From a virus (taxonomy: Duplodnaviria > Caudoviricetes), in IMG/VR virus record IMGVR_UViG_3300028886_000059, positions 1 to 64,000 of that record: 64,000 nt of DNA. One strand, 5' to 3'. Below the pieces are notes generated by a model that was not told where the DNA came from, did no database searches, and worked only from the letters and a program-made list of their open reading frames with translations. Of this stretch, positions 41,729-60,346 are shown piece by piece. Each line of letters begins with the position of its first letter. The first letter of the stretch is position 1. The position numbers and the translations under genes are program-made.

Positions 41729-42388
41729 TTAGACAACACGCCTTGCCATTCGGCTGTGACTCAATCTCCTTGCCCTGTACCAGTCATCGAAGCTGGCGAA
41801 CTCATCCCGTTCCGTATCGTCATCGTCCAGCGTTTGCAGAAATGCCGTCTGCATGGGGCTGACTGTTCGGTAGCCGTAACTGTCGATGTGGTTCAGGTTG
41901 GAGTACAGTCTGCCATTGAATCTGATGAACTGGCCAAACGTCCTGACGTTCCCGTTCTCGTCCATCATGGCGAACTTTGAATAGCCGATTATCTTGTCAA
42001 TTACCCTCGTCACATACGATGACTTGAATCCGTACTTCTGTATGGCTGGGTAGATGATATTCTGAAATGCGGTCTCGCTGTCTGTCATATCCCCTTCGGG
42101 TCTGATGCTCAGAATGCCGTTGTGGGCAAACCAAATGTTTCCGCGATTGAAGGGATGGCAGTTGGCCTTGCACTTGCTGCCGTGCGTTGCCAGTCTGAAA
42201 TGTATGATACACGCCTCCTCCTTCGGTACTTTGTGTATGTACTTCAAGAAGGTCTCAAAGTTCATGCCCTTATAGTGATGGCTCTTGCTGACGAATCCGC
42301 ATCCGTGCGGGTTTCTGCGATGGGCGTTTCTTAACTCGGTATCTGTTGGTAACTGCTGGCCTGCGGCCTTTATGATGATAACACACAT
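41729..42388 (-). CDS. class II glutamine amidotransferase
   Basis: N-terminal MC; HFRLATHG, NCHPF, AHNG, TDSE. Confidence 0.85.
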   Translation of the reverse strand: MCVIIIKAAGQQLPTDTELRNAHRRNPHGCGFVSKSHHYKGMNFETFLKYIHKVPKEEACIIHFRLATHGSKCKANCHPFNRGNIWFAHNGILSIRPEGDMTDSETAFQNIIYPAIQKYGFKSSYVTRVIDKIIGYSKFAMMDENGNVRTFGQFIRFNGRLYSNLNHIDSYGYRTVSPMQTAFLQTLDDDDTERDEFASFDDWYRARRLSHSRMARRVV

Positions 42389-42482: not shown

Positions 42483-43397
42483 TTATTGTGCCTGTCTTGC
42501 AAATTCGCGCTGGCGACGCTTGAAATATGCCTTTTCGTCGTTTGTCAAGAAAGGTATCTCGTCGATGCTGGCGATTGGGCGGGTGAGTCTGTTGTCGCGT
42601 GACCAAACCACCAGCTTTGCACAGAATGAAATCCAGTTAGAAATCTTCTCGTAATCCGTGCTGCCCTGATGCTGGCGAAACTCGATTGTACGGTGGCGTG
42701 ACCATGAACAAGCATTCACCTTGAAATATCTGTCATTGCCGAAAGCGTTGCAGACATCCTCCTGTGTGTGGCAGTTTGCCAAACGCTTGCCGATTATTGA
42801 CTCGCAATAGGTGTTATTGTTTGCCCTGCGGCTTCCTGCCATGAAGGTGTCGATAAGGGTCTCAAGCATCTGATAGTTTACGAATACGCTGACGTACTGC
42901 TCGCCTGTCAAGTCCTTTGCACCGATATGAACGTGCAAGCCTGTTGTCCTGTTGACCTTTGCACCAGCGGCATTCAATGTGGCGCAAGCCTTTTTCAGTG
43001 ATGCCAAACCGTTACGGCCTTTAAGCACTGGAGTAACACATTCGATGCAGCCGCTGTCGCTGTAGCCCTGTGCGTTTCTGATGCTGCCGTCTGTCACGAA
43101 CTTGAAAACGCTGTTGCTGTCGTGATGGTTGTAGCCCTGATATTCAAGGGGTAGGCCATTCTCCGCACCGATTCTCTGTATAAGACTGCGGTCAACGTTA
43201 TAGGTCTCCATCTCGACTCCGAAAGTAACGGTGAACTTCTTCGATGTTGCGGGGATGTATGCACCTGCATCATTGCCAAGAATGATTGTGATTTCGTCAC
43301 GGGTGATGCCCAGCTTCAGGAGTTCAATAACCTTTGCACTCTTTGCCATGCGACCGTTCTTAATCTCGCTTACCTGTTCTGAAAGTGACTTTGCCAT
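42483..43397 (-). CDS. putative amidoligase (COOH-NH2 ligase, Amidoligase_2-like)
   Basis: FGVEME, TDGSI, ECVTPVL, GLHVHIG, TIEFRQHQGS. Confidence 0.85.
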   Translation of the reverse strand: MAKSLSEQVSEIKNGRMAKSAKVIELLKLGITRDEITIILGNDAGAYIPATSKKFTVTFGVEMETYNVDRSLIQRIGAENGLPLEYQGYNHHDSNSVFKFVTDGSIRNAQGYSDSGCIECVTPVLKGRNGLASLKKACATLNAAGAKVNRTTGLHVHIGAKDLTGEQYVSVFVNYQMLETLIDTFMAGSRRANNNTYCESIIGKRLANCHTQEDVCNAFGNDRYFKVNACSWSRHRTIEFRQHQGSTDYEKISNWISFCAKLVVWSRDNRLTRPIASIDEIPFLTNDEKAYFKRRQREFARQAQ

Positions 43398-55638: not shown

Positions 55639-56481
55639 TTACTCCAGTATGTCAATTTTATCCATGAGTTCGCGCCCGTCCACGAATTTGCTATTGGGGT
55701 CGAATCCCAGCTGAATGAGTGCGCCCTGTGTCTCTTGGGGGTTGGGGAACGATACGATGAAATACGACAACATGCCGCCGTCGTTGTTGGTGTCGGACTT
55801 CTTGTTTATGCGGTCTTTGATTTTCTGCACTTCGTTGTGACGCGCAATCTGATTCTCGGCACTGTCGGCCATGAAATCTACGCTGCGGTCAAGTTTCGTG
55901 TTCTCCTCGCTTCCGTGGGTGTTCGCATCAACCTGTGCAAGATGCTCGCTATCCTGTGTCAGATTACCCTTTCGCCAGTCGTTAGCGGGGTCTGTCTCTT
56001 CGGGTATGTCGGTGATGTTCCGAAATTCCTCATCGTCAATGGGTGTTATACCCAGCATGTCGAGGTCGAAGTCGTTGAAGCCTGCGGCCTTGTGGTCTAT
56101 CTTTGCCAGCACGTCACGTAACAGGTCATCGTCGAAGTCGCCCTGTACGGCCTTGTTGTTCAAGAACATGTTCTGTTCCATCTCCTCCTTTTCTGACAGA
56201 TGAACCACCTCCACGCGGATTTCATAGTCGTTTTCATGCGTTTCAGAATTGTATTTGTTCACCTCGTCGATGATTGACACCTTCTGATGACCGCCAACAA
56301 GATTTCCGCTTTCCTCATTCCACACGATACCGCCCATAAGCCCCAGCCGCTTCAAGTTGGCCTTTAGCTGCTTTCGGGCTTCTTCCGAAATCTTGCGGGG
56401 ATTGTATGATGCAAAGTTTATCTGACTTCTCAGGATTACCCTGCATTCAGCTTGTGCGATTTTACTTTTCTTCACTGCCAT
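55639..56481 (-). CDS. ParB-like N-terminal domain protein
   Basis: ASYNPRKIS...GIVWN..GNLVGGHQK...FLNN. Confidence 0.85.
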   Translation of the reverse strand: MAVKKSKIAQAECRVILRSQINFASYNPRKISEEARKQLKANLKRLGLMGGIVWNEESGNLVGGHQKVSIIDEVNKYNSETHENDYEIRVEVVHLSEKEEMEQNMFLNNKAVQGDFDDDLLRDVLAKIDHKAAGFNDFDLDMLGITPIDDEEFRNITDIPEETDPANDWRKGNLTQDSEHLAQVDANTHGSEENTKLDRSVDFMADSAENQIARHNEVQKIKDRINKKSDTNNDGGMLSYFIVSFPNPQETQGALIQLGFDPNSKFVDGRELMDKIDILE

Positions 56482-56484
56482 AAC

Positions 56485-57261
56485 TTACTCCTCCTCCAGT
56501 TCTATGTCATCCGACTGCAAGTTTTCGGGCATTTCCGTCTTGGTGGTTATGCCGTGCTCGTAGTCGAAAATCAGTTTTTCGCAATATGGGAACTCCTGCA
56601 AGCACCTTTGATAGTCACGCGGGTAGTTCTTTCTAAGAAACAGCAGATGGTCGAGGTCTATAGCCAAACCCTGCGACACATTGCCCTTCACGTATTCCAG
56701 CGGCCTAATCAGAGACTTCGCCTTGATGTACTGCAACACCTCGCCGTTAGTCCACACGGCCAGCGGGTAAACCATGCCCTTCTTGGTCATGTATGTACCG
56801 TTCTGCTTCTTGAACATCAGCAGACGCATACGCTTCATGTAGCCATCCACGCCCTTCATGCCGCTAAAGGCATAGGGTACGCCAGTTTCCTGCCTTACCT
56901 GTTCCTCGATTTCGCCGATGGAGCGCATACGCAGGTGGTTCGGGTCTTTCTTCGGCAGCAGATAGCGGGGGTCGGGGTCGCAGAAGAATCCTCCTGCCTT
57001 GAATGCGTCATGCTGAAAATGCAGGATTTTCCGTACTTCGACATTCTTGTAATGCTTCTCAGCCCAATCAATGTAAGGCTGCACATGGTCGCAGTTGTTC
57101 ACAAGGTACATGTAATAGCAGATGACCTTCGGGAATGTCGTTGCCAGCATCTCCAGCAGGGCGATGCCGTCTTTGCCACCAGCCGAATAGAATAGTACGG
57201 CAGTGTCGGTCTTTTCGCGGATGCCCTTGATGATGGCCATTGTCTCTGAATACTTGCTCAT
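56485..57261 (-). CDS. PAPS-reductase-like PP-loop (HUP) protein
   Basis: LFYSAGGKDG PP-loop; GMKGVD..R; YPLAVWT..EVLQYI. Confidence 0.85.
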   Translation of the reverse strand: MSKYSETMAIIKGIREKTDTAVLFYSAGGKDGIALLEMLATTFPKVICYYMYLVNNCDHVQPYIDWAEKHYKNVEVRKILHFQHDAFKAGGFFCDPDPRYLLPKKDPNHLRMRSIGEIEEQVRQETGVPYAFSGMKGVDGYMKRMRLLMFKKQNGTYMTKKGMVYPLAVWTNGEVLQYIKAKSLIRPLEYVKGNVSQGLAIDLDHLLFLRKNYPRDYQRCLQEFPYCEKLIFDYEHGITTKTEMPENLQSDDIELEEE

Positions 57262-57282: not shown

Positions 57283-57951
57283 TTAGTTTGAGCCGCCCAA
57301 AGCTGTACGCAAGGCAGCTGCTATCGTATTTCCGCTACCTCGGCGCAATACCCTTTCGCGGTCACTCATCATCCTATCCCAATCATCGTATGTCTTAACC
57401 CTGTCAAGGTTGATTTCCCTGCTTGGGCTATAGCTTCGCATCATTGCCGACAATCCTTTTGGAAGGGTCATGGCAACGACGGGGAGGCGTGTGCGGCCAT
57501 CCCAATCAGACGGTGCTAAATCGTCATCCCATTCTACTTTTCCGATGGCTTTAGCACCATATTTCGCATACATATTCTGTAATCCACCACCATAGCAATC
57601 CAGCTTTCGGCCACCCCTTGCAGAAGCGAATGCCATGATGTTGGGCATCCTTCCGCGTGTCCTGCTGAATACGGCCTCCACATTGCCGTCGCTTGTTATG
57701 GCGAGTCCTGTCTTGTGGTCTTTAGAAAGGTAATAAGCCGTGCCACTGTTACGGTTATTCCTGAACTGTTTCTTTGTATGGGTGTCAACCATCCAGCCGT
57801 GCCTGTTTTTCTTCTTGGCATAGTTGATGGCATTCTTGAAAGCCTTTGGCGTTGCACGTTCAAATTCTACATGAGAATGACGAATACCCTTTCTTGTCAG
57901 GGCATTCTCGACGCGCTTGTTTGCTTTTTCAATATCGCTTATGTACCTGAC
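57283..57951 (-). CDS. divergent GNAT-like protein with probable GUC start
   Basis: Frame open 53 codons upstream of the first ATG (57792), beginning at GTC directly after TGA; GGRKLDCY..L..MY..YG..WDDDLAPSDW motif. Confidence 0.7.
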   Translation of the reverse strand, partial: VRYISDIEKANKRVENALTRKGIRHSHVEFERATPKAFKNAINYAKKKNRHGWMVDTHTKKQFRNNRNSGTAYYLSKDHKTGLAITSDGNVEAVFSRTRGRMPNIMAFASARGGRKLDCYGGGLQNMYAKYGAKAIGKVEWDDDLAPSDWDGRTRLPVVAMTLPKGLSAMMRSYSPSREINLDRVKTYDDWDRMMSDRERVLRRGSGNTIAAALRTALGGSN

Positions 57952-57964
57952 TCAGCCGTTCCGT

Positions 57965-58162
57965 TTACATTGTCAAAATATCAGCCATCAATTCAGGGCT
58001 GCTATAATCCATGTCACTATCCAGCGAATCATCGCTGGGGCTGTCTGCCAGTTTTCTTGCCTCATCCTCTGTCAGGTAAGGCTTTCCATTCTCCTTGATT
58101 TTGCAGAGCTCCTCAAAAAGACGCTGGCGATATTCAGCAATCTGTTCTTTCGTATGCTTCAT
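57965..58162 (-). CDS. small acidic hypothetical protein
   Basis: Follows an early promoter. Confidence 0.65.
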   Translation of the reverse strand: MKHTKEQIAEYRQRLFEELCKIKENGKPYLTEDEARKLADSPSDDSLDSDMDYSSPELMADILTM

Positions 58163-58181
58163 TGTTGTTCAATTAATAGTG

Positions 58182-58253
58182 CAAAGATAAAGCAAATAAA
58201 TTGATTTACCAAATATTTTTCGTTATTTTTTGTTGCATATTACTTTATTTAAC
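58182..58253 (-). promoter_or_regulatory. early-class promoter (degenerate operator)
   Basis: -7/-33 boxes at the conserved spacing. Confidence 0.7.
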
Positions 58254-58270
58254 TCTTCCGCTAAATCAGA

Positions 58271-58308
58271 ATGGCCACCACCATCATTTTGCTGACGGCG
58301 ATGGCCAT
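58271..58308 (-). terminator. 16-bp hairpin after the Arg-rich gene
   Basis: auggccaucgccguca/ugauggugguggccau. Confidence 0.6.
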
Positions 58309-58329
58309 GAGGTCGGCTCAAGGCAACCT

Positions 58330-58584
58330 TTAGCCCTCAGAGCCTGCGGCAGCACGAAGGGCGGCGGAGCGCAAGGCTGCACCACGAACACCACGCGCCC
58401 GCATAGCGGCTACGTTCTGACGTGCTTGTCGGGCGAATGCCACACGAAGGTCTTGACGACGCTGTTCACGGTTTCCCCAACCTGCACGGCCAGCCGCATA
58501 ACGGCCACCATTTGCCAGTCGGCGACTACCTGCACCGTTCACGTTTGACGTGATACCAGTGATTCGATTGATTCTGTTTCTGAC
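58330..58584 (-). CDS. small Arg/Gly/Ala-rich basic protein with probable GUC start
   Basis: VRNRINRITGITSNVNGAGSRR...AAAGSEG; no in-frame ATG near the start; GCTGA-GTC-AG context. Confidence 0.7.
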   Translation of the reverse strand, partial: VRNRINRITGITSNVNGAGSRRLANGGRYAAGRAGWGNREQRRQDLRVAFARQARQNVAAMRARGVRGAALRSAALRAAAGSEG

Positions 58585-58617
58585 TCAGCATTCAAATTAA
58601 AGGGTTCGACATTATTG

Positions 58618-59028
58618 TTAGTTGTCTGAATGGGCATCCTGTTCCTCGTCGAAGATTTCACAGTTCTCTTTCTGCATGACTTCGCCGAGTTCATACTGCA
58701 TTTGCGTAACATAGTAGGTCTCGCCGTTATCCACGAAGGTAAGCGGCTCGCCAGTCTTTTCGTCATCCATCTGAACGACCTTAATCCCAACGACCTGCAC
58801 CAGCAGACGGGGGGCATTCTTCTGACGGCCATTGATAAGCTGCAAGGCATCGTAGCCCACAACCTCGACATCGCTTGTGCCGTCGCCGTTGTCCTTTTCC
58901 ACCAAATACTGCTTGGCGTTACGCGGGTAAACAAAGCGGTGCTCGACCTTTTGCTCACCCTTCAAGATTTTCTTGAAACTGTCGCGCTTGATTTGTAGCG
59001 TCAGTACATCTAATCCTTCTAAATTCAT
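58618..59028 (-). CDS. ASCH/PUA-like domain protein
   Basis: LTLQIK..F..IL.GEQKVEHR...LQLINGR..APRLLV. Confidence 0.8.
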   Translation of the reverse strand: MNLEGLDVLTLQIKRDSFKKILKGEQKVEHRFVYPRNAKQYLVEKDNGDGTSDVEVVGYDALQLINGRQKNAPRLLVQVVGIKVVQMDDEKTGEPLTFVDNGETYYVTQMQYELGEVMQKENCEIFDEEQDAHSDN

Positions 59029-59061
59029 TTCAATTCCGATTTAATTGTTACTATAATTTTG

Positions 59062-59134
59062 TTGCGGGAGCAGGGCTCGAACCTGCGACCTCCAGTAAGT
59101 CAAACTGTTAAGCTACCAACTGCTCCATCCCGCG
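59062..59134 (-). tRNA. tRNA with initiator-type body and GAC anticodon
   Basis: CGCGGGA UG GAGC AGUUGGUA GCUU A ACAGU UUGACUU ACUGG AGGUC GCAGG UUCGAGC CCUGC UCCCGCA A; C1:A72 mismatch, A11:U24; CCA not encoded. Confidence 0.85.
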
Positions 59135-59346: not shown

Positions 59347-59415
59347 CAAAGGTACAAAATAATATTGAAACTACCAAACTTTTTTGCAGAAAAATAAAGC
59401 AAATAAATTTATTTT
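59347..59415 (-). promoter_or_regulatory. early-class promoter with operator
   Basis: -7 TACCTTTG, -33 TTTGG, aaataaagcaaataaattt. Confidence 0.75.
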
Positions 59416-60346
59416 ACCATTCCGCAAAGATGTTATGACTGGCATTCACGACTTGCACGGAGTACTGAACACGGCCATCCACCTTGTTTCTGATGCTGTC
59501 TTTCCAGTATATCCTCGACTTCGGGGCTTTCGCTGCCACAATCTCCTGCACGTCATTGACGAACTTCACTATGCCGTCAAGCGTGATTGGCTTCTTGTTG
59601 TGCTTCTTGCCGCTTTCCAGCCCTATCTTATAGACATCGCAGAATCCCAATGTGGCCTTTATCATCTCCAGCGAATCATCCAAGTCTATCACAGGCTCGA
59701 TGCTGGCAAAGGTATGAACGCCGTATTCTTTGACCTTCGCCATCGCTTCCACACGCTGCATGTTCGTTGACGCATTCGGCTCAAGGTCATCCCTGCCTGT
59801 CAGCGTGAAACCGACGCACAGGTTCTTACCGCCATTGACCAGCAGACGATGCCCACCGATTCCGTACACCCACTCCGAGCGTTTCGTCAGCATGGTAACT
59901 GGCACTGGAGGCAAATCGTTTCTTCTGCTTCCATCCTCGTTACACCCCAATGCGATATAGGCACACCGCATGAATGTATAGAAGGTATCGACTGGCTGCT
60001 GTAGGCACGGGTCGCTGCTGAACGTAAAGAAGATGCCACGGCCATCTGCCATGATTCTTCCCCTGTACTTATCCAGTTCCTTCTCAAATACCTGCACGGC
60101 CTTGTTACATCCTACGATGAATGCGAGTTTTCTTGAAGCGTCGCAGTCATTCTTGAACTTGACATCCTTTGCCGTCAGCTGAAACTCCTTTTTCAGTTGC
60201 GGGATTTTCTGACCCATTCCGTGACCTAACACGCCTTTCTTGCAGTAGCAATACTCACAGTCGTTTGAACACCCGACAAAGATATTTGCCGCCCAAGGAG
60301 CGTATTCGCGGGCTTTTCCCGCTGGCTGATACACAATTTTTCCCAT
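59414..60346 (-). CDS. radical SAM protein (SPL-like)
   Basis: GCSNDCEYCYC motif; FTFSSDP, MLTK, LEPNAS, ASIEPV. Confidence 0.85.
   Translation of the reverse strand: MGKIVYQPAGKAREYAPWAANIFVGCSNDCEYCYCKKGVLGHGMGQKIPQLKKEFQLTAKDVKFKNDCDASRKLAFIVGCNKAVQVFEKELDKYRGRIMADGRGIFFTFSSDPCLQQPVDTFYTFMRCAYIALGCNEDGSRRNDLPPVPVTMLTKRSEWVYGIGGHRLLVNGGKNLCVGFTLTGRDDLEPNASTNMQRVEAMAKVKEYGVHTFASIEPVIDLDDSLEMIKATLGFCDVYKIGLESGKKHNKKPITLDGIVKFVNDVQEIVAAKAPKSRIYWKDSIRNKVDGRVQYSVQVVNASHNIFAEW

Follow-up and report, generated by a model that had tools for sequence, protein, structure and literature searches.

Can a phage start its own genes at a sense codon that the host initiator does not read, by supplying an initiator transfer RNA (tRNA) of its own? 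To our knowledge, all natural start codons of bacteria and their viruses (AUG, GUG, UUG, and rarely AUU or CUG) are read by one methionine initiator tRNA. The question is raised by the virus record IMGVR_UViG_3300028886_000059 (Caudoviricetes). The source phage genome is 116,414 bp long with a GC content of 47%, and the stretch analysed here (hereafter the window) is its first 64 kb. The phage group is one of Bacteroidota phages. The original prediction, made from the letters of the window, was that a tRNA with initiator features and the anticodon GAC stands upstream of two open reading frames (ORFs) that start at GUC. The elements in question are the following:

59062-59134, minus strand: initiator-scaffold tRNA with anticodon GAC (59099-59101) and loop positions 32-38 at 59097-59103 (ARAGORN, Rfam)
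58579-58589, minus strand: start site 1, GCTGA-GTC-AGA, with GTC at 58582-58584 (sequence; motif conserved)
58330-58584, minus strand: client ORF1, 84 amino acids, Arg/Gly/Ala-rich, start VRNRINR (translation; homologues)
57946-57956, minus strand: start site 2, GCTGA-GTC-AGG, with GTC at 57949-57951 (sequence; relatives)
57283-57951, minus strand: client ORF2, 222 amino acids, GNAT-like (phrog_2563), with its first canonical start at 57792 (PHROG, homologues, AlphaFold2 model)

We consider it likely, on the sequence comparisons described below, that this tRNA is a phage initiator tRNA whose anticodon was changed from CAU to GAC and which starts ORF1 and ORF2 at GUC. The central claim of the original prediction, that the phage would have its own initiator tRNA for GUC, is supported by this comparative evidence. 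Of the outcomes listed there as refuting it, none was seen among those open to computation.

ARAGORN called a tRNA-Val(GAC) at 59061-59134 on the minus strand, and the Rfam tRNA model RF00005 scored 49.2 bits at 59062-59134. Read from the sequence, the acceptor end has a C1.A72 mismatch, the pairs G2:C71, C3:G70, and G4:C69, and A73; CCA is not encoded. The D and T regions carry A11:U24 together with a normal G18 G19 and T54 T55 C56. The anticodon stem consists of A27.G43, C28:G42, A29:U41, G30:C40, and U31:A39, and the anticodon loop is UUGACUU (U32 U33 G34 A35 C36 U37 U38). Position 37 is thus a pyrimidine. In tRNAs, this position is nearly always a purine. The tRNA differs from an ordinary initiator in its anticodon, which is GAC and not CAU. 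It also differs from an elongator tRNA-Val, which has a paired 1:72, Y11:R24, and a purine at 37, where this tRNA has C1.A72, A11:U24, and U37. An open 1:72 end is a hallmark of bacterial initiators, both as a determinant for the formylase and for rejection by EF-Tu (PMC11744186).

We scanned IMG/VR, JGI/ENA metagenomes, and GTDB genomes by pattern and obtained about 40 contigs with this type of tRNA, from which 16 distinct sequences were aligned. The cloverleaf is well kept in the alignment, with 94% standard pairs and compensatory changes at 7 stem pairs, and the loop is 7 nucleotides (nt) long in all relatives. We found 1:72 unpaired in 16/16 distinct sequences (C.A, C.U, C.C, or G.A), A11:U24 in 16/16, G2:C71 in 16/16, and C3:G70 in 15/16, the remaining one being U3.G70. 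Further mismatches at 1:72 are U1.C72 in locus L223 and C.U in locus L221. Since the mismatch is kept while its bases vary, there appears to be selection for an open 1:72 end. The initiator hallmarks noticed in the original prediction were confirmed in this way by ARAGORN, Rfam, direct reading, and the alignment of 16 relatives. In addition, a wider scan found 47 distinct phage tRNAs that share the scaffold and have a CAU anticodon, and the closest of these phage initiators has 89% identity to the window tRNA outside the anticodon arm. The identity elements of valyl-tRNA synthetase (ValRS), A35, C36, and A73, are present in the window tRNA and invariant in relatives with anticodons GAC and AAC. 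These three bases suffice for valine charging in E. coli.

The two ORFs were predicted to open at GTC straight after an in-frame TGA, and this was confirmed. Both do so within the identical 10-mer GCTGAGTCAG (58584 and 57951), and the 9-mer CTGAGTCAG is found only at these two sites on that strand in 64 kb, with about 0.24 occurrences expected per strand. The whole 116-kb genome contains 22 GAGTCA sites, four of which head an in-frame ORF of at least 84 codons without an upstream canonical start. By inspection, only the two sites described here resemble the starts of real genes. Two further candidates for GUC starts, at 41760 (minus strand) and 73808 (plus strand), were rejected, as they lie inside or antisense to other genes.

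ORF2 has no ATG, GTG, or TTG over its first 53 codons, which were described as protein-like in the original prediction. We identified 15 homologues of ORF2, including full-length proteins with ATG starts that span the part before Met54 (residues 1-53), and the alignment of phrog_2563 to ORF2 begins at residue 33. The AlphaFold model of ORF2 has a predicted local distance difference test (pLDDT) value of 82, and residues 6-48, with a pLDDT of about 90, form a helix and the beta1/alpha1 elements of a GNAT-like fold. The top Foldseek matches of the model are all GNATs, although weak ones (probability 0.99, best E 5.5e-4, template modelling score 0.37-0.59). A protein begun at 57792 would therefore lose the helix, beta1, and alpha1. 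The ATG-start homologues and the GNAT-like model thus indicate that the region before the first ATG is coding. Gene callers shorten or miss such genes; ORF2 is called from Met54, which drops beta1/alpha1. At the start position of ORF2, relatives carry CGA-GTC (L002) or CGA-GTT (the L003 group). Pfam gave no match to ORF1 or ORF2, nor to the window's ASCH-like protein that is described below.

The GNAT-like domain of ORF2 was also observed in more distant phages (L012-L032, L039, L040), where it forms the C-terminal part of proteins longer than 1000 amino acids that have normal starts with a Shine-Dalgarno (SD) sequence and ATG. In this it is like the cargo domains of large polyvalent proteins associated with virions.

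For ORF1, the evidence comes from its homologues. In phages whose tRNA has the anticodon AAC, these start at GTT and read V(K/R/Q)RRI(D/N)NNYGPRRN. The 14 codons ahead of the internal GTG or ATG of ORF1 are conserved in relatives (V-R/K/Q-x-R-I-N/D...), and the frame is always open up to the motif.

If the tRNA starts these genes, then its anticodon and the first codon of its clients should change together in homologous loci, as was proposed in the original prediction. Relatives of the valine type have either GAC or AAC, and where the anticodon is AAC, the ORF1 and ORF2 homologues have the openings TGA-GTT-A and CGA-GTT-A. We searched every locus for GA-GTN-A sites at the head of an ORF of 60 codons or more without an upstream canonical start. 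On the tRNA strand, the non-redundant sites of GAC phages comprised 18 GTC, 2 GTT, 2 GTA, and 1 GTG, while those of AAC phages comprised 13 GTT and 3 GTC, two of the latter three being internal to ORF2. The association of GTC/GTT with GAC/AAC gave a Fisher p of 2e-5, with the sites not being independent. Only scattered matches were found on the opposite strands. Three orthologous families (ORF1, ORF2, and a VRRxKS family) switch between GTC and GTT along with the anticodon, so that GAC goes with GTC and AAC with GTT. Valine codon usage is independent of the anticodon; GTC makes up 17% of valine codons in the GAC phage G001. We know of no A34 valine anticodon among bacterial elongators.

Independent signs of GUC and GUU starts were found in other genes. 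In the relative L179, the ParB-like gene has GCGA-GTT-AAA at the exact place of AGAA-ATG-AAA in L003, and its next canonical start lies 40 codons in, past the conserved INFANYNPR motif. In G001, a GAC phage of 129 kb, a tandem array at 49.4-46.7 kb (G001:C1:46700-49420; loci L196-L199 and L203) and a gene at 42689 are made up of small paralogues, all of which open at GTC a few bases past the preceding stop. Three GTC starts of G001 have GGAGG 7-8 nt upstream, a spacing as for ATG starts in these phages. As a control, we examined a related module that has the same gene order (small gene, ORF2 homologue, PAPS-reductase-like gene, terminase, portal) but no such tRNA within 10 kb. Here, the ORF2 homologue begins at ATG. 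The sites thus lie at the 5' end of conserved coding sequence, follow a stop or a gap, have an SD at 5-9 nt where one is used, and are interchangeable with ATG. The AAC form, together with GTT client sites, was found in the assemblies of Lepagella muris NM04_E33 (NZ_SRYB01000001), Paramuribaculum intestinale DSM 100749 (contig NZ_PUED01000074), and Muribaculaceae isolate-036. Products begun at the GUU codons of the AAC-type elements would open with VRRRIDNNYGPR... and VKKPRKTDYNAR.... Because these are cultured Muribaculaceae strains, the system is testable. The array of client genes in G001 is located just upstream of the terminase region.

The conserved context of the start sites extends beyond the codon. 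The consensus of true sites is an A/T-rich stretch followed by GC(Y/A)GA-GUY-A(R)A, and this context is kept in the homologues; its loss there would have spoken against the original prediction. The GA at -2/-1 is complementary to U38/U37, and A(+4) to U33, which together with the anticodon allows up to 6-7 contiguous pairs. These flanks are invariant in the tRNA and in the start sites alike. The second codon of clients is almost always Arg or Lys, and the clients share a basic N-terminus, V-R-R-x-K-S..D-I..Q. Part of the conservation downstream of the start codon may therefore act at the protein level. The clients also share C-terminal tails (...G-S-N-G or ALGGSN-stop, AAAGSEG-stop, ...YMGLSNG-stop, ...KGSSNG-stop; in the window at 57283-57330 and 58330-58380, minus strand), which may be virion-targeting or protease signals.

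The genome scan also revealed the same scaffold (U37 U38 and a 1:72 mismatch) with other anticodons. Two Flavobacteriaceae metagenome-assembled genomes (MAGs) carry GCU tRNAs, located 30-32 nt upstream of a tape-measure-like ORF. This ORF opens with GCTGA-AGC in L216 and has GCCGA-AGC at its 5' end in L219, and no canonical start follows for 12-30 codons. In the high-GC locus L221, an ACU tRNA is followed by GGAGG-cGCTGA-AGT. The GCY element is thus kept even in the AGC and AGU systems. NCU tRNAs without a long variable arm cannot be serine tRNAs. For the CCU initiator-like tRNA at L224:2939-3011 (A1.C72, A11:U24, loop CTCCTTT), no convincing client with an AGG start was found in the 5.4 kb examined. 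The phenomenon seems to be general, with the valine form as one family of it.

Several other tRNA genes were observed in these scans. Two viral contigs, L082 and L167, encode initiator-scaffold phage tRNAs with the anticodons TAT (loop CTTATAA) and AAT (loop CCAATAC), which may be initiators for AUA and AUU, as judged from sequence. L004:5565-5635 (the same as G002:C1:69484-69554) is an odd tRNA-like gene of 71 nt, in which CAU lies in an anticodon loop of 6 nt. G001:C1:85529-85617 is an odd tRNA-like gene of 89 nt, with either a 4-base anticodon (atag) call or an insert in the anticodon arm.

We propose the following mechanism for the window. The tRNA would be transcribed at the head of the operon that carries its client genes. 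Host ValRS would most likely charge it, because A35, C36, and A73 are present, and the host formyltransferase would then formylate it, given the 1:72 mismatch, G2:C71, C3:G70, and A11:U24. The tRNA would enter the ribosomal P site on GUC in the context GCYGA-GUC-AR, and (formyl-)valine would be the first residue of both ORF1 (from 58584) and ORF2 (from 57951). As GUC is unreadable by the host initiator, neither ORF would be translated without the phage tRNA. U37 and U38 probably pair with the conserved A(-1) and G(-2) and lengthen the codon-anticodon helix, and the longer helix might offset the absent G:C pairs in the anticodon stem. IF3 is known to check Watson-Crick pairing at the first two codon positions, with any bases (PMC11744186). 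We infer charging, formylation, P-site use, extended pairing, and the biological purpose from the sequences, while the scaffold, the coding before canonical starts, the conserved motif, and the covariation of anticodon and first codon are observed. More tentatively, the window could represent a general class of virus-encoded private start codons, in which an extended helix between loop and mRNA (U33-U38), together with GCY, would replace G:C licensing. Such a system might be portable to any codon (GUC, GUU, AGC, AGU), would start with an amino acid that is not necessarily the usual one of the codon, and its clients would perhaps be a tRNA-gated set of virion-delivered proteins.

A number of observations weigh against an initiator for GUC. 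U37 is highly unusual. The three consecutive G:C pairs 29-31:39-41 of canonical initiators are absent, as the original prediction had cautioned, and even G30 is not conserved across the family, since the middle pair is G30:C40 in 12/16 relatives and C30:G40 in 4/16. The change to C30:G40 fails to sustain E. coli, and G30:C40, which the window tRNA has, can by itself license an initiator in E. coli (PMC5389676). Anticodon stems of the phage CAU initiators are mostly au/GC/GC or au/GC/au, and a reduced G:C set is therefore common in this group. How the tRNA would enter the P site without the G:C pairs is a question of licensing, and a possible answer lies in the conserved flanks (GA with U37/U38, and GCY). 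The GCY part of the motif is without explanation in the initiator model. A partner for GCY was sought in tRNA positions 39-41, the 5' strand of the anticodon stem, and the T stem, and no consistent complementarity or covariation was found.

Other points against this initiator concern the clients. A tree of the neighbouring gene needs just one or two GAC/AAC switches; each rare tRNA switch was accompanied by many sites in at least three gene families, at an otherwise free synonymous position. A full-motif GTT site is present in the GAC phage G001 (G001:39509), which reflects either G34.U wobble or a chance match. ORF1 and clients of several relatives have a canonical start 4-14 codons downstream, which is possibly the true start. 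In ORF1, this is the GTG 14 codons in (58542), where AAC-type relatives have ATG, and ORF1 could start there. Hence, of the prediction for ORF1, the opening at GTC and the lack of a nearby ATG stood, while a canonical start at 58542 was left possible. Finally, two client genes in this phage are a small payoff for a dedicated tRNA.

The complementarity of loop and start site could also mean that the tRNA is a regulator or chaperone that pairs with GCYGA-GUY without bringing a first amino acid. It might open a structure, mark the site for a phage factor, or act as a T-box-like sensor, with the host initiator acting at a codon that is near-cognate or lies downstream. The loop is complementary to the site over its full length (GAGUCAG in the mRNA, (U/C)UGACUU in the loop), the G:C licensing pairs are absent with G30 not conserved, and an ASCH-like and possibly RNA-binding protein always adjoins the tRNA, all of which agree with such a role. 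We nevertheless regard it as unlikely. A pairing RNA has no need of the conserved initiator features in the acceptor and D stems (1:72 mismatch, A11:U24, G2:C71, C3:G70). Moreover, a stop stands directly before GTC at the window sites, no AUG, GUG, or UUG follows for 53 codons of ORF2, the SD spacing aims at GTC itself, and GTT replaces ATG at the same codon of the ParB-like gene. These observations, namely the conserved acceptor features, the stop before GTC, the SD spacing, and the ATG/GTT swap, are the main reasons why the rival explanations fit less well than an initiator tRNA. An ordinary elongator tRNA-Val, serving codon supplementation or escape from an anticodon nuclease, would leave the ORFs to start at the downstream GTG or ATG or at rare AUA or AUU. 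Phage tRNAs with altered anticodon loops are known to evade host nucleases (PMC10264068), ARAGORN calls a tRNA-Val, and ORF1 does contain the GTG at codon 14. Yet the mismatch at 1:72 is never lost and A11:U24 never varies, U37, and A34 in relatives, are unfit for an elongator, and valine codon usage does not follow the anticodon. The GCYGA motif, the covariation at a synonymous site, and the coding N-terminus of ORF2 would be left unexplained, which makes an elongator very unlikely.

Reading of the start sites by frameshifting is highly improbable. In that case, a quadruplet or +1 frameshift decoder would read AGUC with GACU (34-37) and join the ATG CTG at 58591 to the ORF. Site 1 (ATG-CTG-AGTC) does put the ORF in frame in this way, and the A that precedes the codon is a possible pairing partner of U37. 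However, the loop has 7 nt and not 8, site 2 and most sites of relatives are without a start codon in the needed upstream frame, ORF1 is interrupted at an internal AGT-C when AGTC is translated as valine, and relatives differ in how the frame relates to that of the upstream gene. Readthrough or recoding of TGA from upstream was rejected as well; in the frame of ORF1, a TAA stands three codons ahead of the TGA and no start codon lies in between, and frame relations vary. There is next to no chance that the ORFs without ATG are decaying pseudogenes or assembly errors and that the motif is a chance repeat. The genome is indeed a metagenome assembly, but the arrangement is found in dozens of independent assemblies, including those of cultured strains, the ORFs are conserved as proteins, and the model of ORF2 is confident.

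The neighbourhood of the tRNA contains three further features, all on the minus strand:

59347-59378, minus strand: probable Bacteroidota-type promoter, TTTG-20 nt-TAccTTTG, 5' of the tRNA (read from sequence)
58618-59028, minus strand: ASCH-like gene with a normal ATG (ORF list; phrog_625; PDB matches of the AlphaFold2 model)
57965-58162, minus strand: gene of 65 amino acids with a normal ATG, just upstream of ORF2 in another frame (ORF list and sequence)

The TTTG-N20-TAccTTTG motif is presumably a promoter of the Bacteroidota type, which we take to correspond to the Bacteroides -33/-7 consensus. The ASCH-like gene begins 33 nt past the tRNA, a position kept in all relatives of the valine type that were examined. 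Its AlphaFold2 model is a beta-barrel, and the PDB structures that match it best are ASCH domains, although the matches are weak (Zymomonas ASCH; probability 0.98, E 0.05, template modelling score 0.45), and Pfam ASCH gave a score below the cut-off only with the L002 homologue. A close homologue of the window protein carries the label Prevotella sp. MAG. It is conceivable that the ASCH-like protein is a helper of the tRNA. The gene of 65 amino acids has its own promoter-like motif, TAtcTTTG, at 58182-58189, and its L002 homologue ends with ...YYTM-stop at the same position.

Upstream of the tRNA, the gene at 59414-60346 (minus strand) encodes a 310-amino-acid protein with weak matches to radical-SAM and spore-photoproduct-lyase families, both below Pfam cut-offs. 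A PAPS-reductase-like PP-loop gene and a ParB-like gene (phrog_9353) occupy 55639-57261 (minus strand), directly before the small terminase; the ParB-like gene of the relative L179 is itself a client with a GTT start. Three tRNAs (Val-GAC, Gln-UUG, and Glu-UUC) are encoded in the 116-kb genome. Its first 100 bases (G000:C1:1-100) are repeated at 116190-116290, about 220 bases short of the genome end, which points to circular assembly or to a short terminal repeat.

How does the proposed system compare with those already known? In the acceptor stem, D arm, and T arm, the window tRNA is like the bacterial and phage tRNA-fMet with anticodon CAU (1:72 mismatch, G2:C71, C3:G70, A11:U24, A73). It differs in having the loop UUGACUU instead of CUCAUAA and U:A or U.G instead of G:C at 31:39, and AUG, GUG, and UUG would be unreadable for it. 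Gut phages, crAss-like and others, encode suppressor tRNAs that recode stop codons in late genes. Like these, the window tRNA would alter the meaning of a codon for a subset of genes and couple their expression to a tRNA of the phage. Suppressor tRNAs, however, act in elongation at stop codons, whereas the GAC tRNA would act at initiation on a sense codon. Extended pairing between codon and anticodon at initiation, in which position 37 of the initiator pairs with position -1 of the mRNA, is also known. Here too, the flanks of the start codon are complementary to the flanks of the anticodon, but up to 6-7 loop bases could take part (U33-A(+4), 34-36, U37-A(-1), and U38.G(-2)).

The closest parallel is engineered. 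Work from 1990 reportedly paired a GAC anticodon on an engineered initiator with GUC and valine. In the full-text literature, where most subscription papers were outside the scope, we found no natural non-AUG initiator tRNA, only engineered systems. When the anticodon of an initiator tRNA is changed by engineering, translation starts at the non-AUG codon that matches it (PMC11744186, PMC2268962). The phage system is categorically new with respect to published natural systems, while its principle is known from engineering. If confirmed, a natural and dedicated initiator tRNA that reads a sense codon for an amino acid other than methionine would represent a novel type of deviation from the genetic code. 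In E. coli tRNA-fMet anticodon mutants (CUA amber, GAC, and others), as in the phage tRNA, a swapped anticodon gives a complementary non-AUG start and a non-Met amino acid set by the anticodon, orthogonal to AUG. The mutants keep the three G:C pairs and A37 A38, whereas the phage tRNA is natural, phage-encoded, without the three G:C pairs, and has U37 U38. The phage start sites also carry the GCYGA element, and the function of the phage tRNA is deduced where that of the mutants was measured. The phage tRNA would thus be a natural counterpart of the orthogonal initiation systems built by synthetic biologists.

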